DNA of 63,874 bases, filler included, from Reclinomonas americana ATCC 50394 (GCA_048213135.1; 5 parts of 3 records of this genome joined end to end with filler, not necessarily neighbours in it); one strand, 5' to 3'; numbered from the whole stretch's first letter, positions 781 to 63,775 are shown. The notes: generated by a model not told the origin, from the sequence alone. Made by a program: numbers and translations.

Positions 781-2714
781 GGGAAGCGTGGTGCATCGGC
801 GGCTGGTGCCGGTAGTGCAGCTGCGGGTCGTGGAAGTGCGGGTCGTGGCCGCGGTCGTGGTCGTGGGGGTGGCAAGGTAGCGGCCAGTGCCAGCGGCTCG
901 TCACTGCCGCAACAGCAGGATCCACGACAGATGCGACTGTCGGAGACGAAGCTCCTGGCCGAACGCATGCTGCTGGATCGCATGGCCAAGTTGCGCCCGT
1001 GTGTGATGATGTACAGACAAAATCTCGACAGTGTGCTCACTTATGCGGCAGTCGGTACCTCGACGAGAAAACGTCGCGGAGTGATGCCGTGCCACCCGTC
1101 GAAACGAGTGCAACTGCCGTCGATGGGGACGACGACAGTACGCAGCGAAAGGTGCGTGTGTCCCTCCATTCTACCTCGTTCGTTCGACCACTTCTCTCTC
1201 ACAGACTGCACAGCAGCAGAACAAGTATGCGCGGGCGTGCAAATTGGCCGGCTGGTCGGCCGAGACCACTTCTGCATTTTCCAAGCATTTTGGCCTGGTA
1301 CCACCGTCCGAATCGGTGGTGGTGCGCGCACTGGACGCCGGCAATGCTGCGTTCGTGCTCGACCAGCTGCAACCGTGTTTTGTGGTGCTGTATGAACCGG
1401 ATCTGTCGTTTGGTCGGCGCCTGGAATTGTATCGGGCGGAGCACCCGTCGCGCCCACTGCGCGTCTACTGGCTCACCTACGAGGACTCGGCAGAGGAGCG
1501 TCGGTACCAGACCGCCATTACGCGAGAGCAAGACGCCTTCCGCTCCCTCATCCGCACCAAGGCCCAAATGGTTTGCATCGTTCCGTTGTCTGTCTCCCTT
1601 CGGCCCCCCCCCCTCGTCTCACGCCACTTGCAGGTACTTCCGCAAGATCTACTGGCTGCCTCCATGGCTGGGGCGACTGGGCGAGCGGCCGAAGTGGACA
1701 CGCGTCTGGCCGGCGGTGGTCGACTGCGTTCGCGTTCCTCCAAGACCGTGATTGTTGACATGCGAGAATTCCGCAGCGCGCTGCCTTCCATGTTGCACTT
1801 GCGTGGCATGGAAATCGTGCCTGCGACACTCGTGGTGTGTAGCGCCACTGCTGCAGCGCCGTGATGACACGTTTCTCTGTCTCATACACGCCCACAGGTT
1901 GGCGACTACGTGCTGTCACCAGACATTTGCGTGGAGCGCAAGAGTGTGTCGGATCTGTTCCAGTCGTTCACCTCTGGTCGTCTGTACAATCAGGTGTGCA
2001 CCACTCATCGCTCATCGGTGCTGCTCATCTCTCTTACGACAATGTTGTGTGCACAGGCAGAGGCCATGTGCAAGCACTACAGTCGACCAGCGCTGCTGAT
2101 CGAGTTTGACGAGGACGAGAGTTTCTGTTTTGAACACGAGCGCGACATGCCGTCGGAGATTTTGCCGACTCACAGTTGCGAGAAGCAGCAACAATCCCTT
2201 GACCCTTGACCCTTGCACCCGAGAGCATTCACACCTGCGTGTTACTGTGGCAGTCATCAGCAAGATCACCCTGCTCAGCATGCAATTCCCGTTCCTGCGC
2301 ATTTTGTGGAGCCGATCACCGTTCATGACAGCCGAGTTGTTTGAGCAGCTGAAGGGTGACACGACAGCCGAGCCGAGTGTGGAGGTCGGTTCTGCGATGT
2401 TGCTTGCGTCGTGGTCAACCAATGATCTGATATATTGTGTGCGCGCGCGTGTGTGTGTGCAGCGGGCAATGGCTCTGGGAATGGAAGAGGGTGCCGAGGA
2501 CACCTCCGAGTGGAACAGTGGTGCGCTCGAGCTAATGTCCAAGTTGCCGGGACTGCCGCGTCAATTGGCACGCACGGTGGCGCATCGCGTGCCGGATCTG
2601 CACACTTTGTTCCACATGACGGTGGATGAGTTGCGCGAGGTGGTCGGCACCGCCAACGCCAGCACCCTGCACGAATTCATCAATCGCGAAACTTTTGATG
2701 TACCATCAATATGA
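781..2714 (+). CDS. ERCC4: DNA repair endonuclease XPF/Rad1, C-terminal part (about 7 introns)
   Basis: Spliced exons give ...QPCFVVLYEPDLSFGRRLELY...EERRYQTAITREQDAFRSLIR..., then the nuclease motifs VIVDMREFRSALP, VGDYVLSPDICVERKSVSDL..S..SGRLYNQ and LLIEF, LRILWSRSP, and an HhH2 tail (LMSKLPGL); TGA at 2712-2714. Confidence 0.95.
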
Positions 2715-2859
2715 TTAGCGCGACTGTATTGTCACTTTTGCGTGCGATGATGCACAGGTCGGTCAGCGCGGCTCGCTGCTGTTGCGTGTGTGCGTCAATG
2801 TCGACGACTCTTTCGCCCGCACACTGTTCCTCTCGCCGTCAGGCGTTGAGGTATCGGCC

Positions 2860-5800
2860 TCAGGTGCTCAGCGAGTGGGCTGCTTCGCGGATCTGCGAGC
2901 GTAGTTTCACCGGGAGGTTGCGGAAGTGCTCGGTATCTACCAGCTCGCTAATATGCAGCGCAATGAATCTGTGTCGCACACGGGTCTCAGCGCTCGCTCA
3001 TCGTCGCCATCATCGACATGCAACGTGCTCACCTCACACACTCGTCCTGGGTGGACGCATCGCCGAGGCTCATGGCCAGATACAGAATGGGAATGACCAC
3101 CGAGGCGTCGAGGTAGCGCGCAATCACGTGCTGTGCGATCTTGGCCACGGGTCGCATAAAGAGACGCGAACTGCCCTCCCACACCTCCACGGCCACATCG
3201 GGCGACACACTGCCGGGCTCCACGCAGTCGCGATACAGGAACCCCACAACGACATGCAACGTGGTGCGTGAGATCTCGTGCAGCACCACCGTGCGCTCGA
3301 ATTGCTCCGAGAAGCCACTGTTGAGCATCCGATTGAACATGCCAGACCGAATCGACATGACAAACTGGGCGTCGCACACAAACACACACACGGGAGGTGA
3401 ACGGGAGGTTGGCGACGGGTGGGGAAAACAGCTGGCCACACACCTTGTGCACTTCGACCGACGACTCGTCGCCCGAGTGATCGCGAGACACCAGCTCGCA
3501 GTCAGGCACTGCCACATCGTGCAGGCGTGCGAACCAGCTGATGATACTCAAGGCCGAACCGTGCGTCACCAGAGTGGTGCGCTGTTCCAACACGTGGCAC
3601 AGATGACTGCGCGACGAGAGAGAAAGAGAGAGAAAGAGAGATTGTGAGTGCGCAACAAAGGTTGGGGACACACGGAGCGACTGCAGCACACCGGAAATCG
3701 AGCAGCTCGGCCAACTCGAGCAAGAGCTTGGACTGCACACGTTGCACGTACGGCAGCATCAACTCGGTATCCTCACCCAGTTCCGACAGAAACTCGAGAT
3801 ACGGACATGTGGAACTAATTTCTTCGTATGTCTGCCGCAGCGACACATGCAGTCGCAGTGTGTCCGTGTACACAAAACGGAGCAGCATCAAGGCCACATC
3901 CATCACATCTGTGTCGACGGGATGGATTAAAAAAACAACACTGAAAAGGAAGCCCTTCTGCACAGTGACGCACACACCATAGAGTGACACAAACGGACAG
4001 TGCGCAGCCACCAGTGCCGGCAACGACACGACGAGAGTGATGTCGGTTTGGTTGGAAATCGTGTCCTCCTCAACCAGCAGCGACACCCACTCGTTCAACA
4101 TGTGCACGCCCGGCTCGCGCAACAGCTTCGGGCAGCGCATGAGCAGCGCGCGGTGCAAGTGATACACCTCGGAACTGCACGAACGCACGCACGCCGAGTT
4201 AGCGTCAGTCTCCCAGTCACCGACACCATCCCGAGTCACGAAACGTCAACAGCAAGAGATCTTCGTCGCTCTCATCGTCGTCGGCGTCCACCGAAAACAT
4301 GGGACGCGAGCGTACTTGCACACGCACCGCCACGTCGGAGTAGGTTCCCTTGCCGCCATTGAAGGTTTTGAGCAGCTGCTGCACCAGCAGCGGCTGTGCG
4401 ACACACAGGTGCTTGGTGTTGCTCTCGAACGAGTCAAAGCTCCACACGGGCAGCGGCGGTGGTTCTCGCGACTGCATCTTGCGCGAAAGCTGCGACAGCT
4501 GCTGGCAACAATCCGCCGCCGTCTGCCAATGGTTGAGCTCCTCCCGACCACCTCCGACAATCACCAGGCGGCGGTGGTGTGGCAACATGGCAACGCGAGC
4601 TCCGGGCAGCAGTTCCGGCAACGTCAATGAGAGTACGCGAGTCCAGCGAGGCCCCGCGTCACTCATGTCGTAGATCCAACTGACAAACTCGCCAGCGTCG
4701 AAACCAGGCACTGCGTGGGAACAACACGTGAGCCACACAATCGCGACGCTGGGTCGCACAAACACTCACCCGTCGAGTGCTCTGATGGTCGCAGCCGTGC
4801 CGACCGTACGAGTGGTCCGTGGAACACGTCCATGTCGAGCGGCTTGTAGCTGTCGTCTGCGTGGGGTGCATGGTGAGCCGTGGGCAAGCAGTGAGATACA
4901 CCAAAACACACAGACACACAAACCATGTGCTCGAGCGAGTGCACTCATCGGTGGCAACATTGGTGTCAGACCCATGATGAGCAGCTGCGACTCGCCGAGT
5001 GTGTGCATGAACGGCGAGCTCACGAGCGGTGGTGCGGGCGAGAATGTCGGCGTGTTGACCAACGTGATCTGCGTCCACACCGTCCTCTCTGCCAGCACCT
5101 CGTAAGCAACTTTGTGCGCGCGATGCAAGTGGCAATCAACACACACACCAAGCGGCAGGCACCACAAGTCGTGCAGGTGCTCCCCGTTCGCGTCGAGGCC
5201 GCCATACATGTAGATTTTGCCGCCGACCTCGCACACCTGCACAAGCGGGGCGTGAGCGCGCGATGACGGTGGACCAAAAAGGACGCGACATGACACAAAC
5301 CGAGTGACAGGCACGCGGTGGCGGCCCCGAACCGCCGCCGTCTTCGCTGAGGCACGTCCACGAGATGCTGACCTCGATGCCGCTCTGGTCGCGGACGCGT
5401 GGCGCCGATCGATCGGGGAGTCGCACTGCGGAGAGAAGCAGGTGAGGGATGAGGGGATACCACAAATAAGGCCACCACGATTGGGCACCTTCGGTGGCGG
5501 CTATCCACACGTCATTCAGGTACGTGTTGCCTTCGGCACGTCCGCCGCACACAACCACCAATGGCCGAGTGCTCCCGGAACATGCTGCGTGGTCCGATCG
5601 CGCCGAGGGTCTCGTGCGGCTGGTCAACACCAGCTGCGAATAAAGTGGTGAGTTTGGACGGAGGTGGCAAGAACAGAACAGAAACATGACCCTGCATCGC
5701 AACATTGTGGCTCTCCACGCTGACCCATTCGAACATGGTTGGCCCGCCATCGGAGGCTGCGTGCATGCACAAACATGATTGAGTTGAGCGATGAAAAAGG

Positions 5801-7501
5801 CGCACACACGTGCGTGTGTGTGACAGAGAAGCCGCAACGGAAGAGCATATGCAAGTCGTTCAAAAACGTTAGTGACTCCCTGCCGCCGTGTGCGCCGCGT
5901 GCTCCACGTGGTCGAACGCCGCCAAACAGTAGGCAGCCACGCGTGGACACGCCAGCTGCAACGTGGCCTGTCGACCGCGCCGGATTGATGACTGCGACGG
6001 GAGCAAGTGAGACCACTCTCACTCAGAGGAGATCGTCAACACACACACACCAGTCAGCGTGTGACCGCATCGTGCCGACGGGCCAGCACCAATGCACTTG
6101 GCGCGCTTCCATGAGACGAGCGGGGCGCTGTTGCCACTGCCGCTCGGCGTGGCCGACGGAGAATCGTCAGAGTCCATTGGTGTCGCCGACGACGCTGACG
6201 ATGCCGACGACGACGACGGAGCAAAACTCATGTCGGTCACCCACAGATCGTTCATCACAGTGTCCTTCCAGTCGACGCCGCCAAACAGCAGCAGCTGCGG
6301 CACTTGCGGACGTGTGCCCGGGCAAGTGGCATGATACTGTCGACCGCAGAGCGGAGAGGGACTCTTGGCGGTCGCGCCACCGAGCTGCAGAGCGACAGTC
6401 ACAGGATAGTCACGAATTGAGTGAGGGAAGCAACAATGCACACACACCTTGACAGGATGCTCTTGCCACGACTCGAACATCGGGAATCGCTCACACACCC
6501 GCCAGTCGATCTCTGCGACAACAACAACAACGCAGTGATCAACACTGGGTGGGGGAAGAAGAAAAAACTCATGCAGCATCGCATACCGGCCGCAAACAAC
6601 GCCTCGGCACCCGCCACTCGACGATGGTACGGCTACATGCAATACGCGACTGTGTGAGAAAAAGGGCACGCACGTGTGTCAGTGACACTTACCAAGCGTC
6701 GCACTCGCTCCGCCTTTAATCGCCCCGCATCGGTGGTCTCACCGACCGCCGGCGTCGCCGTCGACGCAGGACCGCTCACCGGCGCAGTCATCGGTGTCAA
6801 CAGCGTCAGCGCAGCTGGAGGCACCACCACGCCTGCATCTTTACTGTGCGGTGGCACATCGCCGTCGTCACCATCATCATCATCGCGATTGCCATCGCCA
6901 CCATCGTCGTCGGTGAGCGGAACAATCGCTGCTGGTGTCGACAGTGTACTGCCAGAGACGGCGTTTGCTCGTGGCGATCGCGGCCGTGCCAACTGGCCGA
7001 TGGTCGACGACACAAAGAGCGGCTTGGAGGCGCACTCATTGACAATGTCTTGGCATTGTGCCAGCAACGTGAACAGCACTTCGCCTCCAGCGCCCTCCTC
7101 CGCCTTGCATGCAGCAGTGAGACAGAGAGCCATAATGGGAAAGAGTGTGTGTGTGAGTGCATGCATACCAGCTGCGCCAATGAGCGATGAGCCTCTTCTA
7201 GCTCCGCGTGTGTAAAGCCCTGCACGCGTGACAGTCGCACCGTCGGCGACTCTTGCGGGTACGCTCGTGGCACAGTCAATTCGGCAGTCGCTGAGTGCAA
7301 AAGAGCACGTGAGAAAGAGAGCGTGCGTGCACACCACTGCACGGAGGAGAGACCTTTTGCTTGTTGCACGCCGCTTGCTTGCAACTCAATCGACAGCAAT
7401 GCACACTCGTTGCCATCGGGCACTGGCTTCACGTGCAACGCGTCTTCATACACCGCGCGCAACACCTCTAGCTCATCACTGAGAACTGCATTGTCAACCA
7501 T
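2860..7501 (-). CDS. RWD + Kelch-repeat + tandem BTB protein (LZTR1-like Cul3 adaptor with an extra N-terminal RWD)
   Basis: ATG at 7501 starts an RWD signature (DELEVLRAVYED...VPRAYPQESP...GEVLFTLL). Phase-consistent splicing leads into Kelch repeats (GRQYHA..LLFGG..MNDLW; PSARSDHA..VCGG..YLNDVW; PRACHS..IYMYGG..LHDLW) and two BTB blocks (YSDVAVRV..HRALL.RCP; PDCELV..VHK..IRSGMFNRML.SGFSE). TGA at 2860-2862. Confidence 0.8.
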
Positions 7502-7597: not shown

Positions 7598-12764
<5,167 letters not shown>

Positions 12765-39100: not shown

Positions 39101-40059
39101 CCCCAGCGGACACGATCTGCAGGGTGACGGCACCAGCCAGTACCCGTTCGCCACCATTCAGCGCGGAATCGACATGGCCTTGTACAATCAGCGCAATGGA
39201 CAGCAGTACGGCAAGGGCCCAGCTGGTGTGTGCCCTCTCTTGACCGCATTACTTGATACTCCTTCCATCAGCACTCAAGTTTGCCTCGTGCTCGCTCCAG
39301 GTCTCCAGAACGGTCAGCCCGCAGCACGCGGCAGTCTCAAGAACTTCAATCCGGACACAATTGTGCTGCGCAAGGGCGTCTACCGTGGCGTCGGCAACCG
39401 CGGCATCCGGCCGTACGGCAAGCTGCTGACTCTGCGCTCGGAGAACTCGGATTACCTGCAGAACAGCAGTGCGGCGCCTGGGCTGTGGGCCTCGGAGGCA
39501 GTTGCGTTTTTTTTTTTTTGCTGCATGTCTCTCCCCCCAAGAGTTTTTCTCCTCACGCGAATCACCCTTGCACAGCTGGTCGACTGCGAGGACTCGGGCG
39601 ACGGCTTCATCATTGAGAGTGCTCAGCGCTACTGGGACAACGATGACAATGCTCGTGAGAGCATCTACGTCAAGAATGTGGCGGAGCGCAAGTGCGTCAT
39701 CGTGCAGCGTTCGAGCACTCTCGCGTGTTTCTTGCTTCCTTACACCATTTGTGTGCGTGTTGCGCAGTTGCAATTCGCGCCGCGTGTACAGCGTCTGGAA
39801 TCCCTTCAAGCTGCGCAATGAGCCGTACCGCAGCCCACTGCAGCAATTCCACAAGGCGTTTGATTACAGCCAAACCAGCGCCACGCTCAAGGCCCAGCAG
39901 GTCTCTTTTATTTTCTCTTCCGTGTTGTGCATTGATTTCAGCGGCTTACCTTTGGTGGATCATTTGCAGCCGACTCAAGTGGTGGACCCGACGCCCAATC
40001 GCTTCCGCGCCGGCAAGACGAAGCCGGGCAAGCCCTGCGCCTCCGACACTGGCTGCTGA
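36161..40059 (+). CDS. Secreted IPT/TIG-repeat protein with a C-terminal 'YVSPxGxD..GDGT..PFATI' beta-helix-cap (DUF1565-like) region
   Basis: Signal peptide MKLLYILASISLVLALM; IPT motif PRLTRLFPTTGPQNGGTTVTIWGANF; later DIYVSPSGHDLQGDGTSQYPFATIQRGIDMA...IVLRKGVYRGVGN; TGA 40057-40059. Confidence 0.75.
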
Positions 40060-43575: not shown

Positions 43576-46500
43576 TTAGATGGGGCACATGGTCGGCGTG
43601 CACCTGTAGATGACCTCGCCGTAGACCGGAGCGGCTGCGTAAAACAACAGAAAATCAGTAAGCAGGCTCGGTAAAAGTCAAATACAAGGGAAAACTTGAG
43701 ACGCAACCCGAGTAGCACGGAGCCAGGAAGCTAGGCGGAAGCTGGAACGTGAAGTCGAGAAGCGAATCGCGCGAGAAGTTGTACGAGCACACCAGGCCGG
43801 GGGTGCAAATGTCGAACTCGCACAGAGCGCTGGTGAAGTTCTTGATGTTGTCGGCATCGCTGTAGCCGTTGCAGTTGGCCTGCACGTTGGCACCGCACTT
43901 GGCGGTGGCCACACCACGGAAGATCGAGTTGTTGGTGCCAGCACCCCAGGTGGCGTGCAGGATGTCAATGGCCTCGCCGAGCGGGCAGGAGATCGGGTCG
44001 GCGGTGTTCTCGCAAATGATCTGGAAACGAGCATCGCAATCGCCATTGGTGGCAAAGGCGGTGTCGTCGTTGGTCCAGCTCAGCGGCGGGCCGAGGTCGC
44101 AAGTGCAAGTGCCCTGGCCACCGCAAAGGCCGTGGCCGTTGCAAGTGTTCGCGCCAATGTTGTCGGCACCGCCAGGCTGCGGGTTGTTCACGTTGTCGAT
44201 GCACTCGTTGATGCAGAACGTCGAGTCGGCACCAGCGCCGAGATCCATGAGCTCGGGCTTCGGGTAGTAGGTCGGCGTGCACTGCTCGCAGTTGCTGCCG
44301 GTCCAGTGATCGTTGCAGGTGCACGAGCCGTCAAAGTTGGCGGTACCGTTGCCGTTGCAAGTGACCTCGTCCGAGTACTGGCAGAAGACACCGTTGAAGC
44401 CGCTGTCGCAGTTGCAGAGGGTGGTGTCGCCGACGACGCCGCGGTGGTCAAAGTAGGCAGCCTGGCAGAGACCGTTGCCGTTGCAGCCGTTCTGGGCGCG
44501 CGAGTTGAGGCACTCGCAGTTCGGGCCGTTGAAGCCGTCGCCAGTGTTGCAGATGCACAGCGGGATGTTGTCGCCGGCAACGGGGTTGCAGGTACCAGNN
44601 NNNNNNNNNNNNNNNNNNNNNNNNNNNNNNNNNNNNNNNNNNNNNNNNNNNNNNNNNNNNNNNNNNNNNNNNNNNNNNNNNNNNNNNNNNNNNNNNNNNN
44701 NNNNNNNNNNNNNNNNNNNNNNNNNNNNNNNNNNCGTTCTCGGCCTGGTGGCAGGTGCCGACCGCGTCGAGGTTGCCGCCCTTGGCGTGCACGTCGGTGA
44801 TGACCGGGTTGCACTGGCAGTTGAGGCCACCCCAGCCGTCGGGGCACACGCACTCACCAGTGCGCGAGTTGCAGCCCTGGTAGTTGCAAGTGTCGATCTC
44901 GCTGCAGTTGCAGTAGTCACCGAACCAGTCAGCGTTGCAGCTGCAGTCCCAGTCGCTCGAGCACGAGCCATGCGGGCCACAGTTCACAAAGTCGGTCAGG
45001 CCGGTAATGGTGGAGCGTCGCCGTTCGAGCACAGGCAGTGCGGGCCGTCAAAGCCGTTGTCGCACACGCAGTTCTGGCCCTCCTTGCTTGCGTCGCAGTC
45101 GCCCTTGACGCCGCACTCTGACTCCAGGCAGCGGCAGTCCTTGCCACCAAAGCCAGACTCGCAGGCGCACTTGTTGATCTCGGTATTGTCGCACGAGCCC
45201 TGAGGAGTCATCAGATCCGAGCCGCAGTACGCNNNNNNNNNNNNNNNNNNNNNNNNNNNNNNNNNNNNNNNNNNNNNNNNNNNNNNNNNNNNNNNNNNNN
45301 NNNNNNNNNNNNNNNNNNNNNNNNNNNNNNNNNNNNNNNNNNNNNNNNNNNNNNNNNNNNNNNNNNNNNNNNNNNNNNNNNNNNNNNNNNNNNNNNNNNN
45401 NNNNNNNNNNNNNNNNNNNNNNNNNNNNNNNNNNNNNNNNNNNNNNNNNATTGGTGCAGGCGCAGGTGGTGCCACCGAAGCCGCTGTTGCAAGTGCAAGC
45501 ACCGTCGGTGCCGCTAGCAGTGCAGCTGCCCTGACCGAGCGGAGCGCTGCAGTCGTTGGCCTGGTTGCAACGGCAGTCGGCACCAGTGTAGCCGGCCACG
45601 CAGGTGCACTCCTGAGTGGTCGAGTCGCTCTTGCACGAGCCCGACGTGGCGGTCGACAGCGTGCAGTCCGACTGGCGGCACGAGCAGTCGGCTCCGCCAA
45701 AGAGAGCGTCGCACTGGCACTCGCCATTGGTACCGTCGGCCTTGCAGTCGCCACGGCTCAGCGCCAGACCGCAGTCGTTGCGCACGCAGCCGCAGTCGGC
45801 GCCGCCAAAGCCACTGTTGCAGATGCACTCGTTGACCTTGTCCGCATTGCACTGACCCTGGCTGGTGCCAAAGTTGCAGTCGTTCTGGTTGCACTCGCAG
45901 GTGCTGCCGCCCCAGCCTACACGCGAAAGCCACTCAGTGAGTCACCAACGACGGGAGGCGCGAAAAAAATCAAATACAACGACAACACACCGGCGCTGCA
46001 CTCGCAAGTGATGCCGTCAGCACCGCAAATGCCATTGAAGCAGTTCTTGTTCGGGCCCGAGGTGAGGCACGGGGTGATCTCGCAATTGTCGCCCGAGAAG
46101 CCCGGGTCGCAGATGCAAGGCGCGTTGCCGTTGGCCGACAGACCGCCAGTGGCGAACTTGCCGTGGCCGCTGCAGTTGTTGGGGACGCAGTGCCAGGTGA
46201 GCTCGAGGTACTTGTAGACCGACGAGCACTAGAGAGAGAGAGAGAGAGAGAAAGTGAGCCAACCACCGAAAAAGTTGTAACGGGCACACGACGATTGAAA
46301 AAATTATAGTGCACTCACCGGTGAGCCCTCGTCGTCGCTGGGCTGGCCGAGCACGCTGACAGACGGCTTGAGGCCAGGGCACGACTCGAGTGGCGGCGAG
46401 GTGTGGCACTGGGTGGCGTAGGCGTTGATCACCGTGGTGCCAGCGCCCATGCACAGCGAGTTGGTCTTCAGAGACGACAAGTTAGCCGGCGGCGTCGGGC

Positions 46501-47524: not shown

Positions 47525-49493
47525 CTAGACTGCCGACTCGAGAAACGCGCGTAGTGCCAGAAACGGATGGACACTCGAGCTATCCATGGCCGCCGCCGCC
47601 GTTGCCGCAACAGCGGGCGCCGTGGCCGCAGCCGCCGCCGAACTATGCGTGCCGGTACGCTGGCGTTTGGTGGCAGGCGGCTTGGTTTCTGGCGATACAA
47701 CCATGCGGACCGAGCCCGACGCCACCTTCCGCACCGGCAGACCACGGACGGCACGCGTGATGCACGACACGAGCTTGTCCACACGACGACTGCGTTTACG
47801 CAGCGGTGGCGCAGAAGCGTGGCAGAGAATGAACTCCAGCACCTGGATGTCTGGCAGCACGAACACGGTCACAGTGAGAACACTTGTCGTTCGGAGGCGC
47901 AGAAACCCCGCGCACGCTCATGCGTAACTTGAGATTTGTGCAATCCACACCGAGGGGTCGTCGACATCAATGAGACTCGGCAGCGCGTCGACCAAGTCAC
48001 TCTGGAACTGTGGCCACGCAAATTGACACAGCATCGCCTGCACAACACGAGGCAGGTATTGAGCGTCTACAATGAGATCGAGTGCCGCCGCCCCCTCGGC
48101 ATACCAGTTGTGCGTGGTTGCGCCGTTCGCGAGCGGCACCAATCAGAGCCGACACGGCGTGGAACAACAAGGCAGTTGGTGTACACCAACAGAACACCAG
48201 ACTGCGCACATCGTTGGTCGAAAACAGCAAGTCGCCACTGCCCGCGCCACCCTCTGCCATCGGAGCATCGCCGTCGCCAGCAGCCAACGCCGAGGCGGCC
48301 TCGCCACCTGCGACGGCAGACGAGTGTGGTTCGCGTGGCACCACGGCACACACGGCTGGCGTCAGGTGGCCGTCGGTGGCGGCCGCAGTGAGCAGTCGCG
48401 TGGCGACCCGTCGCAGCTCCTGCCAGCAGTCTCGGCCGGCAAAGTGTGCCAGAAAGGCGCGCTGCAACAATGCCGCATCGTGACGCAGACGCAGTTGAGG
48501 AGATCCGCTGAGCACCGGCTCCACCAGCGTACACATCACCGAGCACCACTCCAGCGCCTCCTCCACTCTCCCATTGTACGCGAAAGCGGTCTGCATCGAC
48601 GACGCAAACCACGCCGCACTGGGTGTGCTCAACAGGCGCGGACACCACTCTCGAACGGTGGCGACGGTGGCGAGCTGGGACGCGCCTCCGAGCGCCTCAT
48701 CCATGGCCAGCAGCGATTTGCGTATCTCGGCCTGTGGGCCCACTGCCGACTGCTCCACACGCGGCCGATGCGACACGAGCGACACAATGGACGTTCTAAC
48801 ACACACACAGCGGAGGGATGAGACGCACGCACGTGCGCGCTCTGGCTGCTCTTCCCCATGCACACACACACACACATACCGTCCCACGGTGCACGCAGCG
48901 TGTAATCTGTACGCGGTCGACACGAGGCGCGCAGCCGTCAGCGCGTCGGCAACACTGCTGCTGCCCTCAATGCGGGTGGCGAGTGCGGTCAAACTCTGCC
49001 ACCGCGACTGCAGCGCCAAGTGCTCCACCGCCAGCAGTGTCAGTCGCTGAAGCGATGCCAACGTGTGCGGATCCACAACAGCTGCCACATCAACAAACGG
49101 AAGCACATGGTCCACTGCATGGCGGCTGGTCAGATGAAGACAGAGACAGGTACATGCAGACACACGTGCTTGCTCACCGACAAAATCTCGAGCACACTCA
49201 TCGTGACGCGACGATCCCACACCGCCCTCACCACTCACTCGCACAAGCATCTCCGCCAGCCCCAGCAGTGAGATGTGCGAGCCACGATCCACTTGCACCC
49301 ACAAGCGATGCACAAGCACCGCAGTCCACCTCGCAGTGGCCGCCGAGTCCGCCGCGGCCGCCGAGCGCAGTGCGGTGGCGGCCCCGGCCAGCGCGCGACT
49401 CGCATTCGCCGAGCGCAACAGCACTCGCGCAACCTCGGCACGCGACGATGCCAGAGACGAAGAGGAGAGCGCGGTGAGAGCGACGGCATCGCG
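47525..49493 (-). CDS. Helical-repeat protein, possibly Integrator subunit 10 (C-terminal part)
   Basis: Long open exons; the C-terminal AMLCQFAWPQ...FVLPDIQVLEFI resembles INTS10 'VLLQxxWP...YVTNIDMLEEF'; TAG at 47525-47527. The identification is from memory and weak. Confidence 0.45.
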
Positions 49494-52000: not shown

Positions 52001-52050
52001 TAGTGCCTTCCCCTTTCCTCTCTCTCTATTGCCGGCCCTGCGCACGCAAC

Positions 52051-52479
52051 ACTTTTGCACAGTCACCACCTAAATAAAGACCACTCTTGAGTGTCAGAGG
52101 CATGCAATGCACACACACAGAGTGAAATTACACGAAACCTCATAGCCTGCACGCTCCGCCTGTCGCGCAAACTGCTCAGGGTTCGACGCATTCTTCTTCA
52201 CGGGCGCCTGTGTGTGAGAGAGAGAGCGACATGTCACGCACTTTTATCTCGCACTTTCGTGTGTGAGTATGTAAGAGTGTGAGGCAGCACGCAACCTTCT
52301 TGCGCAGCACAACGGGCTTCCTGTGTGTGAGTGAGAGAGTGTGAGAGAGAGAGAGCGCATGATGATGATGATGATGCGCATACAAGATTCCGCACCAGTC
52401 TGTGCATGCAATACAGAGCGCGCAAGTGAGCATCTCACACACGCACAAAGACAGACACACTCGCCGCACCTTGATCCAT
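52051..52479 (-). CDS. MBF1: Multiprotein bridging factor 1 (EDF1), 5' part; the rest is lost in the gap/linker
   Basis: Five tiny exons splice to MDQDWKPVVLRKKAPVKKNASNPEQFARQAERAGYEVVTVQK, the MBF1 N-terminal signature (QDWxPVVLRK...ARRxGxxVxTxxK). Confidence 0.88.
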
Positions 52480-53439: not shown

Positions 53440-55200
53440 AGTTGCTGTGGTCGGCTCTCTCTATCTCCTGCTCATCATCGCCGACCACTTTGATTCTTGC
53501 TTGCTCCTCATTCCATGCGATTTGGTTTCTCGTGATCTTCGTCTCCACATGATCTCTCTTCTCTCCTCGCTTCGTTGCCACTCTATTTCCTTCCACCACG
53601 ATCCCTCACCAAGCATCTTGACTCACTCCATCCGAGAGTGCGCTTCGTATCCTGCCGCAATCACCCCCTCGCTCTCCCTTTCGCAAGCACGATCGACTCT
53701 CCATGTCAATCGCTCTCCTTTGGTCACTGTCGTTCACTCATCCTCGCCGACCGCTTTGATTCCACACCAGAGTGCGATTTGGTTTCTCGTGATCATCGTC
53801 TCCACGCGATCTCTCTTCTCTCTCCTCTCCTCGATTCGTTGCCTGCTCTCTGTCTCCGTCCACCGCGATCCCTCTCATCACCAGGCATCTTGACTCACTC
53901 CATTCCAGAGTGCGCTTCGTCTCCGTCTCTCCCTCCCTCTCTCCTTAATGCACAACGATCGATCTCCTTTGGTCACAGTCGCTCACGCATCATCGACTGG
54001 TTGCTTCTCATGTCATCACGAATGGCTCCTGATGTCCTTGTCTCCGCACGATCCTCTCTCTTTCTCTCACTCGTTGCAAGCATGCTTGATTGTCTCCTGT
54101 CACCACGATCGCTCTCGTTCAATCACTCGCCCTGAAGCGCCTTGATTGCTCTCGTCAGCATTCACTGTGGACAGCCTCTTTGTCATCCAGTCTCGCCTCT
54201 CATTCCATGATGGCCTCTGCTGGGCCCTTCAGTGCACTGGCGTTCTCATTTTTTTCACGTACCACTGTTCTCGTCCTCCTTCGCACGACTCTCACCCTTC
54301 CCCACATGATCTCTCTTGATCACAGTCTCACTTCTTCTCATGCCATTGCACACTGTTCTTGCCCTCTGCTGCACTGTTGTCTCACATCGTCTCCTCACGA
54401 TCTGTCACTCTCTCTCTCTCTCTCTCGCCCTCCTTGCTAGTTCCTCAATCCATTGCAGAATCCCCGACAATTACTCTCCCTGCTCCATGTGATCTCTCTT
54501 GATCGCCCAGACTCACTCCTTCTCGTCCTATTTGTTCTCCCTTATTACCGGCACCACGTTTTTCTCTGCTCCACACGATCTGTGCTAATTACCCATCTTC
54601 ATATGTCATCGCAAACTGTTCTTGCCTTCCTTTGCGCGACGATCTCTCCCCCACTTTACATGGTCTTTTCTCTTTGTCGCCCAGTCTCACTTCTCATGCC
54701 GTTGCAAACTGTTCTTGCCCTCCTCTGCATTGTTGTCAACACAACATCTCCACACGATCTCTCTTAATCTCGCTGGCTCATTCCTTCTCGTCCTATATGT
54801 TCTCCCTTATTACCGGCACCACGATTTTCCCTGCTCCACATGATCTGTGTGAATTGCCCATCTTCATATGTCATCGCAAACTGTTCTTCCCTTCCTTTGC
54901 GCGACGATCTCTCCCCCACTTTACATGGTCTTTTCTCTTTGTCGCCCAGACTCACTGCTTCTCATGCCGTTGCAAACTGTTCTTGCCCTCCTCTGCACTC
55001 TTGTCATCAAACGTCTCCACACGATCTTGATCGCCCAGACTCACTCCTCATGCCGTTGCAAGCTGTTCTTGCCCTCTCCCTTCTCCACACGATCTTTCTC
55101 TTCATCGCAGTCTCTTCATCCTATTGCCAGGACTGTTCCTGCTCATGTGTTGATCATTCAGTCTCACTTCTCCTCATTCCCCACTCCATTCCAAAACCAT
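53440..55200. repeat. CT-rich tandem duplications (~255-266 bp units), probably intronic to CFAP141
   Basis: TCTCGTCCTAT.TGTTCTCCCTTATTACCGGCACCACG at ~54521 and ~54787; TGCGATTTGGTTTCTCGTGATC at ~53516 and ~53773. Confidence 0.85.
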
Positions 55201-55213
55201 CGACACCACGATT

Positions 55214-55246
<33 letters not shown>

Positions 55247-55303
55247 TCTGTATGTCTATCCTTGCATCTCAACTCTTCCCCTTTTCCTTCTCCCCCATCA
55301 CAG

Positions 55304-55785
55304 CCACTCCTCTCCCGCGGCGTCGAACCCCGCAACATCTCACGACGAATCGAGATCGATCGACACGTCGCCGACTACGAGCACGTAACCAAAAGGCGCG
55401 TGCGCATGCGCTTCACTCTCTTTCCCCCTTTTTTTCTGCGAGAGTGACTCACTGTCGCCGCCGCCAACAAAAAAAAAACAGGGACCGCATTGCACAATTC
55501 AAGGCCGACTGGGAGAACAAGAAGATGGCCTCCAAGCGGGTAAACATGCGCAACCCGCTGGCCAACCCCGGGGTGAAGGAGGAGCTGCGGGCGGTGCAGT
55601 ATGCCACCATGGTTGAGCGCAAAGCCGCCCTGCAACGGCTGCTGGAGGAGGAGCAGGCGGGGTGCGTGGTTTTGTTGAGCGATTGAGGGAAGGAGTTGGG
55701 TTTGATTGCTCACTGTGGTGTGTCAGGTACGAGAGGGAACTGGATGAAATGGGACTGGCGATCTTCCGTGAGAAGGATTGAGGAG
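55304..55785 (+). CDS. CFAP141: Cilia/flagella microtubule inner protein CFAP141 (C1orf189) family; start exon not located
   Basis: ...DRIAQFKADWENK...VKEELRAVQYATMVERKAALQRLLEEEQAG|YERELDEMGLAIFREKD* matches the 'EL...L..R.AAL..L...E...Y..EL..MG.A' signature. Confidence 0.75.
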
Positions 55786-56309
55786 GGGGTGGGGTGGTGG
55801 AGCGTGTGTGTGTGTGAGTGTGAGTGGGGAGGAGAGGAGGATGAAGAAGAAGAAGTGTATATTTCAAAAAGCAAGTTATTTCAAAAAGCAAGTTACTTCT
55901 GGTCGTGAGGAACTGTGGTGATGCAGGGAACTGGATGACATGGGGCTGGCAATCTTCTGAGAGAAGGATAGAGGGCAGGCGTGTGTGAGTGAGAAGAGAG
56001 GAGAGGAGGAGGAAAAAAGAGTATTAATTTCTTACTTGTGGTCGTGAGGATGGAATGGGATGGTCCAGGCGTGACTTGGAAGGAGCGGGGGTTGGTGATC
56101 CTGGAGAGATAAAGACTGGAATGCAGAATGAGAGCTGGAGTCGCGTTGGGTTTGAAACTTGTAAGGAGAAGCAGTGGGGATGGATGGGCAGTTGTGATAT
56201 GAGAAAGCACAGTTCGTCTCATTGAAAGAGATGTGTTGGTGTTGGGAGTTGTAACGAGTGCAGGTAAAGTCGGGTAAGAACAGTGAGACCGGTGGTGCAC
56301 TTAGAAATA

Positions 56310-56790
56310 GAGAAAACTCGTCTCCACGCAGCAGTGCAGATTGACGGCAAGAGAGTCTGTGTAGGAAGCCATAAGGAGAACCACCAGGGTGGAGCAATAA
56401 GCAGTGGGAATGCTGGTGATGAGAACAAGAAAGATGATGAAGTTTGCTGACATGAAAAGGACTAGCAGTCGAGAAGGAGTGGATGCAGTTGCAATAAGAG
56501 AAAACTCGTCTCCACACACAGCAGTGCAGAATGATGGCGAGAGAGATGTCGGTGTAAGAGGCAGAGTGGGGTAGCAGTGTGCAGTCGTGATGTGAGACCA
56601 CGATCGTCTCCACACAGCAGTGCAGAAAGATGGCGAGAGAGTCGATGTAGGAAGCCATAAGGAAAGGAGCAGAAAGCAGTGGGAATGCAGGTGCAGTCGT
56701 TTACGGAGAACAAGAGAGATGATAACGTTGGAAGACATAAGAAGGATCAGCAGTCGACAAGTAATGCATGCAGTCGCGATGGGAGAAAGC
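56310..56790. repeat. Degenerate tandem repeat (CTCGTCTCCACACAGCAGTGCAGA / GTAGGAAGCCATAAGGA)
   Basis: Motifs recur 2-3 times in intergenic DNA. Confidence 0.7.
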
Positions 56791-57217
56791 ACAGCTCTTC
56801 TTTATACAGCGTGTGAAAGCAAGAGAGGCATTCACTTGGTAGACTCTGTTCGTGACTTCAAATCTATCAGTCTACATCACTGTGTGGAGCTTGTCAGGAG
56901 CCGCAATCTTCCCCATCGTTTATAGCTCGTGATTTTTGGAACTAGGAGGTCATAAGGGAGACCAGCAGCATCGGGGAAGAAACACGCGAGTATGAAAAGA
57001 AATGCAGGCGTTGTCGTGAAGGGAGAAATCGCGGCTCGTCTTCACAAAGCAGCGCCACATATTTACAAGAGACGTGTTGGTGACAGCAATTCAGGAAACC
57101 CCGTAGAGTCAGGAAAGAAGCATGCAACTCGAGGAGGTGGGAATTGTCGCGGATCCTGTCAATTTTCCGACACGCGCCCGCTTCTCTCCCCATATCTCTC
57201 GCCGGCGCGCACGCGCA

Positions 57218-58241: not shown

Positions 58242-59583
58242 TCACTCCCAGTTGCTGCCAGTGAGGTCAACACACGCGCGGTGAGCGAGAAGTCGAATGA
58301 ATGGCGGAAAGTAGGCGACTTAACAAACGTAGACCACATCCCCCTGTCCCCCTGGTCGCGCAGTGCATGTGATTGCAACCGCCTGCGCGCGGCAGCCCAC
58401 AGTGTGTGAGTTGCAGGGAACGATCAGCCGACAGCGTGATTGCCCTCTTGACACACCGTTCTTTTCGATACGGGTCCCACAGCGGGGACAGGGTTTCGTC
58501 AAAACTGCAATACTTTCCGCCGTCAAGCGCTCCTCCTCCTCTCGGCGACGCCGTGCCTCCTCTTCGGCTCGCTTCTGCTCAGCATGCGCACGCCGTTCCT
58601 CTTCCACGTGTCGATCATACGACGCACAATCGAATCCGAAATGCCACGCAGACTGCAGAGATGGCTGAGACGTCGCGAGTAAACCCATCCCACAAAGAGA
58701 ACTCCCCCACACTGTGGCTCACGTTGTGGTGCAAACACCAGTGCTGAGAACATTGGGCGCAGGCAAAATGAACGTCGCCCTCGTCGACCTGCACAACATT
58801 ATGGATTTTGCTGTCGGCGCGGAGAAGCAACAAACATATGCATACAGAGACAGGAAGCCACCCTTGACCATTTGCACGGCAGAGCACTGCGGGTTGAGGC
58901 ATCGGTGACAGTGCGGATCCTGAGAGACGTGCGCGGTGATTGCCAGATGCTGGAAACGCTCGTAGACCTCACGAGTGGCCAATCGCTGAACATGTACAAG
59001 TCAATGCGACGTGAGCTGCCACACTTGCATGCAAAGGGCGACGAAAAAGTATCGGCATATCTTCTGGCTCGAGTTGCCGTCGACAAGTGACGTTGGAACA
59101 ACGCACCACCGAAGTGCCCGTGTCGGGGTCCATCACAGCAGTAGCGATCAATTGCGCAGCGCACTGACAAAACAACACAGAATGTCAGTGTATATAACTC
59201 ACGCATCGTAATGCTCAGTGGCGATTCACCTCAGCACAAAGCTCGTCGGGATGAGGACAAGTGAGCGTGAGTGGCACTAGGCGATCGACGCTGAACCTCT
59301 CGCCGCAGACTGAGCAGTCGGCCTCGGGGATGCGGACGACATCTTCCAGTGCCTCAACCGGCTCTGCGCCCATGTCCGCCAACTGGCGACGGAGCGCTGC
59401 CAGTCGTGCCTGCCGAGCCGGAATACTCGGGTCCGCTTTGTGCATGTACACGCAGTGAGACACCGCATAGGCGAAGGTGTTTCGGCAGACAGCCACACAC
59501 GGCACCTCGCGAATTCGTGCGCAAAAAGTACTCGAGCGACACGAGCTCCGAGCGCAGGTCGTCGGCCAGCGTGGAGGGATCCA
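58242..59583 (-). CDS. RBR (RING-IBR-RING) E3 ubiquitin ligase, C-terminal part
   Basis: RING1 CSVCGE..TCPH..LCAEC; IBR CHRCLNPQC..FACAQC...WH..DCASY; RING2 TKPCPRCGTRIEKNG|GCNHMHC..GCGLRFNWE*, including the catalytic Cys context. Confidence 0.9.
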
Positions 59584-60175: not shown

Positions 60176-60339
60176 GTGNNNNNNNNNNNNNNNNNNNNNN
60201 NNNNNNNNNNNNNNNNNNNNNNTTAATTAATTAANNNNNNNNNNNNNNNNNNNNNNNNNNNNNNNNNNNNNNNNNNNNAGACTGTGTGATTCTGCGCGAA
60301 ATGTTCTTTGCCTTTCCTCCCGCTCACGTGTACGGATAG

Positions 60340-61187
60340 TGTTCCGTTGGTGTGCGCCGGTGTGCTGCTGTGGGTGCGTGCACTGTTTGCCGATGCCGAG
60401 TTCCACGGCGATGCGTACAAGGACACGGCCACGGTGAACACCTTTGTCAACATTCTGCTGCTGGTCCGTTCGCGTGTTTGTGCATATCTCCCATGTGCCC
60501 CCCCTTCTGTGTCTCACCCAGCCTCCCCGCAGATCAACGAACGGCAAGCGCGACAGCGACTGCATGTATACCGTGTGGCCAAGGAGATTGTGTCGTCCAC
60601 TGTGGAGAAGATCGAACCGGCTCCGTTGGTGTGTGTGTCTGTGCTGAGGAGAGAGAGATTGAGTCGCTCAGTGCTCACTGCCACCATGGCGAACGCACAG
60701 GTCGGCTATCGCAATCAGTTTGTCCCCATATTCGTGCAGCTGGCTCAGTTGGGTCACGTCGACGCGACGCTTGCGGCACTTGCCGAGTTTGCCGCCTCCG
60801 ACAGCGTCGATTTGTCGTTCATTCGTGAGTGCATGATGGAGGTGAGAATGTCGCATTGCGCCGTCGTGTGTGCGCGTCAGGTGCTCACGTTGGCGATGCA
60901 GTTGCTGGGCATGATCGAGCCACCGTTCGAGCCGGCCTTTGTGTCGGACGTGATTCGCGTCCTCGGCCATCCGCGATACGCGCTGGCCATGAAGCGTGTG
61001 GAGTGCAAGAGTCGAATCCGCGAGTTCTACGGTATTTTTCCTCCTTGTCACAACGAATCACACAAGACACTCCCACTCTTACGCACACGTGTGTTATGCA
61101 GATGGAATCCGCGAGTCGGGCGTTGGTCTGGCGGCAGGGGAAATATCCATTCTGCAATCACACATGCCCGAGGGTGTGGTACTCTAA
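60340..61187 (+). CDS. NELFCD: Negative elongation factor C/D (TH1), C-terminal part
   Basis: VPLVCAGVLLWV...FVQLAQLGHV...VDLSFIRECMME|LLGMIEPPFEPAFVSDVIRVL..IREF aligns by eye with NELFCD 'PVVAMGVLKWV...MVHLLSRGYV...TDISLIRYFVTEVLDVIAPPYTSDFV'. Confidence 0.85.
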
Positions 61188-61322
61188 TCCCAACTTGTCT
61201 GTAAACCGTGTCTGGCAAATAAAAGAAGCAAGCGAGTGAATGCACAAAGACCAGCTGCACCTCTCTTTACGGAAACCCGGCACATGCACACAGAAGGGGG
61301 AGCACGCGACACGGTGTTGCTA

Positions 61323-63775
61323 TTACAATCCCGGAGGCCGTTGGTCGTATGATTGCGTGGCCCACGGTTGTTGTTGCTGCTGCTGCTGCTGCTGTGACGG
61401 ATCACCCCACGGTGCCGGCTGCGCGAATGAACCAAGAATCACTGGTGAACAAATAGCAACAAAAAAAAGGATACAACACAAACAGAAAGAGAGACTTACC
61501 GCGCCCCACGGAGCACCAGGAGCTGGAGGTACCGGCACACCATAGCCCGGATATCCACCGTACGCGGCCGGCGGCGGCGGTGGTGGGTAGCCGGGGTAGG
61601 CTGCCGCGGGTGGCGGATAGTAGCTGGGAGCCATGCCCGGTGCCAGGCCAGGAGCCATACCGGGAGCCATAGCAGGTGCCGGTAGCATGCCGCCACCGTA
61701 ACCGCCGGCTGATGGCGGTGGTGGAGGTGGCGGTGGTGCTGCGCGCGCGGAGCGGTCCTTGCCTTCGATTTCCGCCATGAAATCCTGATACTCTTCATCC
61801 ATGCGCGAGTTGCCTCGGCCACCGGCAGCACCGGCGCCACCGGCCATGCCAGCACCACCAGCAAAGTACTGGTCGGTATGCCTGCCGGAGCCGCCCTCCT
61901 GTCGATCGTCGCGCAATGTGCCTGGGGGAGGAGCAGTGTGAGAAAGAAAAGAAGCAAGGGAGGAGAGCTAATTTGTGTGTGCCTACCATTGATCTTGGCC
62001 AGCTCCTCCAGCTGCTTGCGCTTCCAGTCGTTCAGGTCGTCGTCGATGGGCACCAAGAGCTTTTCAATCATCTTGACGGCCTGGGGTGAGGAGGAGTGAG
62101 TGCGTGAGTGAATGGAGATGGAAGGAGGAGAGGGGCATTAACACGAAACCTTATCGACTTGCTCCATGGTGTCACCTGTCACGGCCACGTGCAAATCCTC
62201 ATCATCGCCTGGCTGCGGGCGATTGGACTGTGGATTGCACGCAGAGAGGGAGTGAGACAGAGAGCGGGCAGTGAGGAATAGAGATCGACGCAACTCTGCC
62301 CTCCTTCGTGGAACCCTTGCCACGAATAGCAATGTTGCAACCGGTTTCACGCGTCAGGCGCTTCTGAGTGTTGCCACGCGGACCGATGATCAAACCTGTT
62401 GAGGCAGAAAGTGTGTCAGTGAGAGGCCGCGGGTGAGAAAACGACAGTGCCATCACGCACCAATAAAATTGTAGTCCGGGTACTTCTTGTACGGAATGGG
62501 GATCTTCTTCGTGATGCGCAGGTTCTCCGGCTTCATGTCAACCGGCGGCTGCAAGGAACGAGCATCCATTTTTTAAAACATCAAACAACCACACACGCGG
62601 TCAACAAAAACATCACGCAACTCTGAACTGCGGCCACACTTGCATGGCTTTCTTGACCAGATCGCGTCGTTCAATGTTGAGGCGATCCTTGACGACCTGA
62701 TCACGCGTGTTCTGGCGCTTGCCGTACCGATCGTAAACGTAGTCTGGCGATGGCTCACTGCGCGTCGACGGAGATGAGAGGACATGCTGAAAACATGCAG
62801 GAGACACAAGACTCACCGCTGCATCTCTTCCTCCTCATACGCGCCCAGGTTGACCTTGCGGCCGATTTCCTCCAGGCGAGCGCGGACTGCAGCGAGAATG
62901 GTGAGACGAAGGGATGAGGGAGGGAGAAGAGGGAAGGGAGGGAAGGATGGAAGGGACGGGAGAAGGAGAGGAGAAGGAGAGGAGAAGGAGAGGAGAAGGA
63001 GAGGAGAAGGAGAGGAGAAGGAGAGGAGAAGGAGAGGAGAAGGAGAGGAGAAGGAGAGGAGAAGGAGAGGAGAGGAGAGAGAGAGAGAGAGGGAGAGAGG
63101 GNNNNNNNNNNNNNNNNNNNNNNNNNNNNNNNNNNNNNNNNNNNNNNNNNNNNNNNNNNNNNNNNNNNNNNNNNNNNNNNNNNNNNNNNNNNNNNNNNNN
63201 NNNNNNNNNNNNNNNNNNNNNNNNNNNNGGAGGGGAGAAGGAGGGGAGAAGGAGGGGAGAAGGAGAGGAGAAGGAGAGGAGAAGGAGAGGAGAAGGAGAG
63301 GAGAAGGAGAGGAGAAGGAGAGGAGAAGGAGAGGAGAAGGAGAGGAGAAGGAGAAGAACAAAGAAGGCGGAAAGAAGTGGGGCTGAAGATGAGTAAGGCA
63401 TGGCGAGAACGGGAGGGTGGATAACGGAGAGAGGAAAGGCAGGGAGGGGAGGGTATGTCCAAGTTGTCGGTGAGCAATGTCGTTGTAGGGGAAAGGCTGA
63501 GCAGCGATGCTGAGTAGGCGCATGCATGGGGACGAAGTGATCCCAGTGTGCAGACGTGTGCATTCGTCTCTCTCCCCTCTCCTCTCTTCCCTCACTACCT
63601 CTCTCTCTCTCTCTCCCACCCCCTCGTTCCACGCAACTCATAAACGCCTGCTGCGCCTCCTCCGTCATCCCATACGGAATGTGCGGCGGCACTCCCGGAA
63701 TCACAGTCTTCTGCTCCGGTCCCCAACGACGACGCCGCGCCTGTGACATGTGCTCGCGACGAATGCGCTCCTTTT
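61323..63775 (-). CDS. SF1: Splicing factor 1 / branchpoint-bridging protein; 5' end lies beyond the window
   Basis: [35 protein letters not shown] domain [43 protein letters not shown]2 [32 protein letters not shown], and a Pro-rich tail. Confidence 0.96.
62960..63355. repeat. 11-bp minisatellite (GGAGAGGAGAA)n in an SF1 intron
   Basis: Perfect tandem copies on both sides of a gap. Confidence 0.92.

Follow-up and report, generated by a model that had tools for sequence, protein, structure and literature searches.

Two donor (5') splice-site registers occur side by side in the same genes within a 63,874-nucleotide stretch of DNA from Reclinomonas americana ATCC 50394 (GCA_048213135.1); the whole stretch, five parts of three records joined with filler, is referred to here as the window. 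Ordinary donors in the window read G/GTGCGT or G/GTGAGT, where the slash marks the cut, whereas donors of the second class have an additional T after the GT, most often as GTTGCGT, and carry the remaining intron-side consensus one base further downstream. A first-pass annotation of the window had listed 22 such GTT donors as a major and routine class, and proposed that they represent the ordinary consensus slid by one base and recognized by U1 small nuclear RNA (snRNA) in a shifted register. This observation holds, and the class extends beyond the list, with 13 of 25 introns in three verified genes using GTT donors and further sites found outside the list; the slid-consensus interpretation is partly supported.

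A major class of GTT donors

The verified genes encode the splicing factor SF1, an acid-sphingomyelinase-like protein and an XPF/ERCC4 protein; donors with the pattern GTT followed by N[C/A]G are found in 4/7, 8/16 and 1/2 of their introns, respectively, and at +7 T or C is found in 11 of these 13 donors and A in the other two. Of the 7451 GT sites of the window, 216 (2.9%) conform to the pattern, against which 13 of 25 is a strong excess (binomial p 3.8e-14). The heptamer GTTGCGT occurs 25 times on both strands where 12.7 are expected, an approximately twofold enrichment; no enrichment is seen for GTAGCGT (1 occurrence vs 2.5 expected), GTCGCGT (19 vs 15.4) or GTGGCGT (15 vs 19.2), and the extra base after GT is therefore enriched only when it is T. 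A donor-blind pass of an ab initio gene model returns GTTGCG as the commonest donor hexamer (six donors); the pass is noisy, and 87 of its 117 GT donors fit no class. A local coding-potential score, computed for each GT site, failed to distinguish donors from background, and a test for strong acceptors downstream of the motif was dropped as confounded by intron density, GTCGCGT also giving 6/19.

Read directly from the sequence, GT-T is present on the claimed strand at all 22 listed coordinates, in the forms GTTGCGT (14), GTTGCG[A/C/G] (3), GTTGAG[T/C] (3), GTTACGC (1) and GTTAAGT (1). An ab initio gene model trained with both donor classes recovers 15 of the 22; its accuracy is moderate, with 5/7 and 7 to 8/16 held-out donors found in cross-validation. 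The listed introns are supported at most sites, at seven of them by the ab initio model only, but four could not be verified: 38673 and 58324 have ambiguous frames, while 32328 and 52050, which had been flagged as uncertain from the start, are followed by runs of N and lack a usable acceptor.

All 25 introns in the verified genes start with GT and end with AG, and their removal yields frames colinear with homologues in SF1, XPF and sphingomyelinase, apart from one stretch of the last that is 13 residues longer. In the verified set, 10 of the 11 strict GTT introns and 9 of the 14 remaining introns contain the branch box CTNA[CT], and branch-box types do not differ between GTT and ordinary introns in the extended sets described below; an apparent link of GTT donors to a CTCA[CT] box (10/11 vs 4/14 in verified introns) disappeared in larger sets (18/35 vs 13/28). 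Lengths likewise do not differ (medians of 67 nucleotides (nt) for GTT introns and 63.5 nt for ordinary ones), and the mean pairwise local scores of intron interiors are 6.97 (GTT), 7.28 (ordinary) and 6.38 (shuffled). Because branch boxes and lengths agree and interiors are not shared, both classes are considered one kind of intron, with no amplified family among them; they are ordinary U2-type (major-spliceosome) GT-AG introns of 53-79 nt, whose branch box is CTNAY and whose 3' end is CAG. The U12-type donor consensus is [A/G]TATCCTT; none of the 22 listed sites reads it, and with branch boxes as in ordinary introns a U12-type identity is rejected.

Displaced consensus and the exon -1 position

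The two consensus sequences were compared over 35 GTT donors (the 22 listed and 13 further) and 28 ordinary donors, only some of which are homology-verified. The GTT donors have G at +4 (25), C or A at +5 (31 and 4), G at +6 (all 35), T at +7 (27) and G at +8 (17); the ordinary donors have G at +3 (25), C or A at +4 (15 and 10), G at +5 (27), T at +6 (26) and G at +7 (13). Positions +4 to +8 of the GTT donors thus match +3 to +7 of the ordinary donors as the first-pass annotation had anticipated; the summed Jensen-Shannon divergence is 0.19 at a shift of +1 vs 3.2, 2.5 and 2.7 at shifts of 0, -1 and +2.

The exon side of the junction differs between the classes. In the verified genes G occupies -1 in 11/12 ordinary donors vs 3/13 GTT donors (p 0.001), and in the extended sets in 18/28 vs 7/35 (p 0.0006); the 35 GTT donors have A 13, T 9, G 7 and C 6 at this position, and ordinary donors show no preference at -2. 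We regard -1 in GTT donors as mostly free of constraint, A being at best mildly preferred. The one-base displacement together with the loss of -1 G supports a register slip over a simple bulge at +3. A second stereotyped GTT donor, GTTTCGT, is found at 63853, 62149, 52138, 4244 and 40692 on the minus strand and 8167 on the plus strand, and includes a subtype that keeps -1 G, AAG/GTTTCGTG at 63853 and 62149 and GAG/GTTTCGTG at 52138. Since a +3 bulge would retain the -1 G preference, a plain bulge suits the AAG/GTTTCGTG type only; a bulged (+2/+3) register likewise leads one to expect -1 G, which is seen in this subtype but in just 7/35 GTT donors overall.

Introns of the verified genes

SF1 was examined by spliced alignment. 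One SF1 exon, used as the query of a full HMMER search, gave 24 relatives, of which the top match has 59% identity across 45 residues, and a profile built from 11 of 12 fetched relatives was aligned to the minus strand of 61000-63874 by a dynamic programme in which introns start with GT or GC and end with AG, and which is otherwise blind to the donor. The alignment contains seven introns, four of them with GTT donors. The first-pass annotation had given the GTT share as three of eight SF1 introns; all three of its sites are recovered, but the share was understated. Introns are given below with the donor sequence; sites are named in the text by the first base of the intron, which on the minus strand is the higher coordinate.

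62887..63637, minus strand: SF1 intron, GTT class, TGA/GTTGCGTG; spliced alignment, masking this GT costs 13.1 score units
62758..62816, minus strand: SF1 intron, ordinary donor GCG/GTGAGT; spliced alignment
62549..62621, minus strand: SF1 intron, GTT class, AGA/GTTGCGTG; spliced alignment, masking costs 10.0
62396..62460, minus strand: SF1 intron, ordinary donor TTG/GTGCGT; spliced alignment, masking costs 114.5
62228..62294, minus strand: SF1 intron, GTT class, AGA/GTTGCGTC; spliced alignment
62081..62149, minus strand: SF1 intron, GTT class with -1 G, unlisted, AAG/GTTTCGTG; spliced alignment, masking costs 20.1
61922..61986, minus strand: SF1 intron, donor ATG/GTAGGC; spliced alignment
63847..63853, minus strand: unlisted donor AAG/GTTTCGTG of the first visible SF1 intron; predicted by the ab initio model, outside the alignment

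The junction at 62621 reads QFR/PPVD, and the relatives share F[KR]PP.DY; the FR/PP junction by which the first-pass annotation had fixed this donor is therefore reproduced, as are its TDLH, GNHD and GHTH junctions in the sphingomyelinase gene. At 62294, homology favours neither the GTT donor nor a GC donor that lies 3 nt downstream of it (drop -0.1).

The intron from 63637 is 751 nt long, about 10 times the usual length, and contains CT-rich repeats of the (CTCCT)n type flanking a run of N (62890-63420). The intron from 62294 has two in-frame acceptors 15 nt apart (62213-62228), CCACAG/ and CCCGCAG/; the upstream one is favoured by homology and the downstream one by the gene model.

In the acid-sphingomyelinase-like gene on the plus strand, the removal of 16 introns gives one open frame containing LWTGDNPSH, GNHD and GHTHNDLFR. 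Eight of the 16 introns have GTT donors, and six of these eight had been listed.

33123..33186, plus strand: intron, GTT class, ACT/GTTGCGC; frame connects FLQL to TDLHIQLD
33212..33270, plus strand: intron, ordinary donor GAT/GTGCGT; open frame
33549, 33843, 34072, 34183, 34277 and 35164, plus strand: other ordinary donors; open frame
33723..33780, plus strand: intron, GTT class, AGA/GTTGAGC; open frame, and the residue count between PDB-anchored exons fits to <=4 residues
33934..33992, plus strand: intron, GTT class, TGG/GTTGCGTG; junction creates GNHD, which a GC donor 3 nt downstream breaks
34380..34452, plus strand: intron, GTT class, TCC/GTTGCGTG; open frame, and the downstream exon aligns to residues 343-383 of human acid sphingomyelinase (5i81_A)
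34578..34640, plus strand: intron, donor TGG/GTTCGTGC; open frame and model, dependent on exon 34641-34674
34675..34733, plus strand: probable intron, GTT class, GCT/GTTGCGTA; open frame and ab initio model
34774..34840, plus strand: intron, GTT class with -1 G, unlisted, AAG/GTTCCGCG; open frame, junction ILLK/YADIL
34879..34949, plus strand: intron, GTT class, CAC/GTTGCGTC; junction creates GHTH, which a GC donor 3 nt downstream breaks
34980..35036, plus strand: intron, GTT class, unlisted, TGT/GTTGCGAT; sole right-phase GT linking HNDLFRGERV to FRILRKP

The model is anchored to human acid sphingomyelinase (5i81_A) at three points: residue 18 of exon 33620-33721 corresponds to position 225 (weak), residue 3 of exon 34451-34579 to position 343 (E 2.6e-05) and residue 10 of exon 35038-35163 to position 427 (weak); a PDB search with exon 33994-34071 gave no match. 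Between the first two anchors the model is four residues shorter than the human protein, which supports the six small exons and seven introns of this interval as a set. Between the second and third it is 13 residues longer, which casts doubt on the 34-nt exon 34641-34674; as this exon could be skipped, the donor at 34675 is only probable. The donor at 34578 has T at +3 but G and T at +5 and +6, which places it in the ordinary register. The final ab initio model departs from the open frame at two points, as it picks donor 34783 and not 34774, and predicts a single 158-nt intron from 34879 that spans the donor at 34980. The intron from 33549 has two in-frame acceptors 9 nt apart (33609-33617), GAGAGAG/ and TTTGTAG/.

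Two introns were placed in the XPF/ERCC4 gene by comparison with human XPF. The open reading frame (ORF) before 2175 aligns to XPF residues 710-770 and the downstream exon to 786-903, with a gap of the right size. The intron 1994-2056 is in frame and stop-free, and its unspliced reading therefore passes as an ORF with an insertion.

2175..2253, plus strand: XPF/ERCC4 intron, GTT class, ACA/GTTGCGAG; colinearity with human XPF
1994..2056, plus strand: XPF intron of 63 nt, ordinary donor CAG/GTGTGC; insertion of ~20-21 residues relative to XPF between two aligned blocks

U1 pairing and a proposed mechanism

The reading we prefer, to which an even chance is given, is that a single snRNA set serves both registers, either by slipping or by bulging. 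At the RNA level the ordinary register would be G/GU-GCGU(G) or GAGU and the second N/GU-U-GCGU(G) or GUUUCGU; the extra U after GU would move all of the intron-side recognition block away from the cut by one base, and the same RNAs, U1 first and then U6, would pair with the displaced block in the +1 register. In such a duplex intron G+1 would replace exon G-1 opposite C9 of U1, and U+3 would replace U+2; the subset keeping -1 G may instead bulge a U at +2/+3, and the cut would still be set at GU by the catalytic core. We infer the base pairing itself, and likewise that the U1 arm of this lineage is more G/C-rich than the canonical arm; with such an arm, the helix would be sufficiently strong in its downstream half for the slip to be tolerated.

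Several results weigh against slipping or bulging on one snRNA set. The duplex with the canonical U1 arm has a mean energy of -2.2 kcal/mol for GTT donors vs -6.1 for ordinary donors, and the best fold with this arm is the shifted register in 5/35 GTT donors and a bulged register in 5/35; the near-invariant C at +5 (31/35) would face a pseudouridine, where A would pair with U1. The A at -1 that would mark a pure shift, where it would take the role of the ordinary -2 base and pair with U10 of U1, was claimed at 12 of the 22 listed sites (with T 4, C 3 and G 3), and a recount returns these figures; it is found at just one of the 13 GTT donors added independently (p 0.01 between lists), so the enrichment is seen in the original list only and is not robust. 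Furthermore, the extended donor sets rest on a moderately accurate gene model trained with both classes, and the match of +5/+6 to +6/+7 arises partly from how the sets were defined, although that of the flanking columns does not. Given the weak pairing with the canonical arm, the mechanism described in human does not transfer unchanged, and an altered or second U1 becomes a live rival.

The feasibility of an altered arm can be illustrated with two hypothetical sequences, which were chosen to fit and whose energies show feasibility only. ACGCACC, which has G/C at two pseudouridine positions, gives -6.5 kcal/mol for GTT donors and -9.5 for ordinary donors; ACGCAAC, the complement of GUUGCGU, gives -9.3 and -5.9, respectively. 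It is tentatively suggested, at well under an even chance, that the two registers coexist in the same genes through a changed snRNA set: either a U1 arm in which G/C replaces the two pseudouridines, so that slipping by one base would carry no energetic cost, or a second U1, perhaps with a matching change in U6, that is complementary to AGUUGCGU.

Alternative explanations

A dedicated or remodelled U1, as the sole species or as a second variant, may have a 5' arm directly complementary to (A)GUUGCGU, so that GTT donors would be canonical for it; we consider this doubtful, yet more probable than the other alternatives. The GTT motif is stereotyped over seven bases, including the C at +5, in a manner that resembles a specific complement, and both hypothetical arms pair with it far better than the canonical arm; co-evolved U1 arms are also reported for Entamoeba and Mastigamoeba in the accessible parts of a preprint (10.1101/2022.06.08.495308). 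The same parts describe standard arms in Thecamonas and Mamiellales despite donors that are C-rich at +4, which counts against this alternative. The ACGCAAC arm weakens ordinary donors, so that the lineage would need two U1 species; furthermore, if C lies opposite -1, a straight complement predicts a -1 G, which the GTT donors mostly do not have. The probability left after slipping or bulging and a dedicated U1 goes to recognition driven by proteins or U6, and to error.

Recognition mainly without U1 pairing is considered unlikely. Proteins (U1C, LUC7-type or others) or direct U6/U5 contacts would read GUUGCGU, and the likeness to a slid consensus would reflect their preferences; this is consistent with predicted U1 pairing that is weak in every register and with the near absence of constraint at exon -1 in GTT donors. 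The intron-side block is nevertheless the same as in ordinary donors and only displaced, which is simplest to explain with one reader and one binding face.

Mis-called donors are very improbable as the source of the class. Here the true 5' ends would be a GC three bases downstream (GTT/GCGTG, which keeps the frame in every case) or another GT close by; the alignment does fall back on the GC once a GTTGCGT donor is masked, at 62294 without loss of score, frames alone do not exclude the GC reading, and the four listed sites named above cannot be verified. Elsewhere the GC reading fares poorly: it adds a residue that breaks GNHD (33934) and GHTH (34879), and at 63637 and 62621 the masking costs listed above, of which 4 units are the preset GC penalty, are what it incurs. 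GCGTGN is also unlike the ordinary donors of the window (GTGCGT or GTGAGT), and GTTTCGT donors have no GC at that position, yet 62149 is the best supported of the GTT sites with its drop of 20.1. A GC-AG reading is thus rejected as a general explanation, with 62294 undecided.

The repeated GTTGCGT, 25 times the same heptamer, can hardly be ascribed to a recently amplified intron family (an introner-like element), given interiors no more alike than those of ordinary or shuffled introns, or to an assembly artefact adding a homopolymer T, since an indel error would neither alter the -1 base preference nor be confined to donors.

Other genes and sites in the window

The window is eukaryotic, with 57% G+C, dense short introns and 5991 N in 25 runs. 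Genes were assigned from Pfam or PDB matches; Pfam was run on 386 stop-free ORFs and exons (150 + 150 + 86), and its matches are few because the exons are short.

0.9-2.9 kb, plus strand: XPF/ERCC4 gene
3-7.5 kb, minus strand: BTB/Kelch gene and RWD gene
33.0-35.7 kb, plus strand: acid-sphingomyelinase-like gene
40.3-42.8 kb, minus strand: GOST-family membrane protein gene
43.5-47 kb, minus strand: EGF-repeat gene
61.4-63.9 kb, minus strand: splicing factor SF1 gene
Also matched: a TIG-domain gene and an RBR-type ligase gene

The lineage seems to be poorly represented in public protein sets. Word-index protein searches with a GOST exon and a sphingomyelinase ORF, both in frame, returned no relative, and homologue-based splicing was therefore feasible for SF1 only. 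Rfam returned no snRNA gene within the window at gathering thresholds, and relaxation to E <= 1 added only low-complexity microRNA-like matches and one weak SCARNA2 match.

Outside the three verified genes, a GTT intron in the Kelch/BTB gene is supported by its junction peptide. Seven listed sites (11891, 12070, 37488, 39501, 43707, 47928 and 52295) are predicted by the ab initio model, and nine unlisted GTT donors were added from the same source.

5757..5838, minus strand: Kelch/BTB intron, GTT class, TCC/GTTGCGGC; Kelch-like junction peptide FLNDLHMLF-P-SDGGPTMFEWVSV, with Kelch Pfam matches on the flanking ORFs
11891..11959, plus strand: predicted intron, GTT class, GCA/GTTGCGTG; ab initio model
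12070..12128, plus strand: predicted intron, GTT class, CAA/GTTGCGTG; ab initio model, including the donor-blind pass
37488..37562, plus strand: predicted intron, GTT class, ACA/GTTGCGTG; ab initio model
39501..39575, plus strand: predicted intron, GTT class, GCA/GTTGCGTT; ab initio model
43635..43707, minus strand: predicted intron of the EGF-repeat gene, GTT class, CGG/GTTGCGTC; ab initio model, including the donor-blind pass, upstream exon with EGF Pfam matches
47851..47928, minus strand: predicted intron, GTT class, CAA/GTTACGCA; ab initio model
52289..52295, minus strand: listed donor AAG/GTTGCGTG, predicted by the model; acceptor uncertain, many in-frame acceptors possible
38673..38679, plus strand: listed candidate donor CGA/GTTGAGTG; two phases stay open, absent from the ab initio model
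58318..58324, minus strand: listed candidate donor TTT/GTTAAGTC; frames ambiguous beside an RBR-type GCNHMHC motif
32322..32328, minus strand: listed candidate donor CGA/GTTGAGTG; downstream N run 31421-31908, no N-free acceptor within range
52044..52050, minus strand: listed candidate donor AGT/GTTGCGTG; downstream N run 51480-51802, no usable acceptor
52138, 41452, 40692, 23247, 4244 and 5703 (minus strand), 1580, 8167 and 12441 (plus strand): further unlisted GTT donors predicted by the ab initio model

Four spacers (19844-19943, 33372-33471, 50550-50649 and 60179-60278) each consist of 44 N, TTAATTAATTAA and 44 N, an all-frame stop linker of the type that joins contigs into pseudo-scaffolds; neighbouring blocks may not truly adjoin. 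Tandem repeat units with identical putative splice signals occupy 25500-27500 and 53400-57200, for example CATGCC/GTTGCAA at 54701, 54969 and 55055; the gene model reads these as genes with introns of 200-450 nt, which is probably a repeat artefact.

Significance and comparison with known systems

If the displaced class is backed by the splicing machinery as proposed, a donor consensus displaced by one base would here, for the first time in any genome, form a main class instead of a rare exception that is tolerated. The searched literature, from which most subscription journals were absent, contained no report of a lineage with shifted-register donors as the main class, nor of GTTGCGT or GTTGAGT as a splice signal; the motif turned up in one paper on an unrelated subject. 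Knowledge of how the spliceosome cuts exactly despite variable U1 and U6 pairing comes mainly from a few unusual human sites and from engineered reporters; a genome in which about half of the introns are displaced by one base would offer a natural test of cut-site fidelity on a large scale, and would reveal which partner gives way, the U1 arm, the ACAGAGA box of U6, or U1C and LUC7-type proteins. On the practical side, gene prediction based on GTNNGT donors would get a large proportion of this organism's exons wrong.

U12-type introns provide a second stereotyped donor class beside the major one; the donors found here do not read the U12-type motif, and their branch boxes are those of ordinary introns.

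A close likeness is to human donors read in shifted or bulged registers. According to the accessible sections of Tan et al. 2016 (PMC4856993), experiments have proven these registers, but they are rare: Table 3 predicts 68 bulge (+2/+3) and 51 bulge (+3) donors among 201,541, and all validated non-canonical registers together make up 1.5%. As described there with reference to Roca and Krainer 2009, human shifted-register sites share with the GTT donors the form N/GUU followed by a one-base-displaced consensus, the cut at GU and a -1 base that is not necessarily G; they are however a tiny minority, whereas 13/25 introns of the verified genes belong to the class here, and with A at +4/+5 their pairing to canonical U1 is good, whereas the present donors have G-C-G and pair poorly. 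The human bulge +2/+3 and +3 registers (Roca et al. 2012; Tan et al. 2016), in which the extra U loops out, fit AAG/GUUUCGU and AAG/GUUCCGC in the window, but use a -1 G that 28/35 GTT donors do not have.

A lineage-wide departure from GUAAGU is described for the Archamoebae in the accessible parts of 10.1101/2022.06.08.495308, where it is explained by changed U1 bases: Entamoeba has T at +3, with GUUUGU donors and the U1 arm ACAAAC, and Mastigamoeba has G-C at +3/+4 (GUGCGC) and the arm ACGUAC. In both cases the donors belong to a single class and keep the normal register, with G/U at +5/+6 (10.1101/2022.06.08.495308), whereas the genes of the window use two registers side by side.

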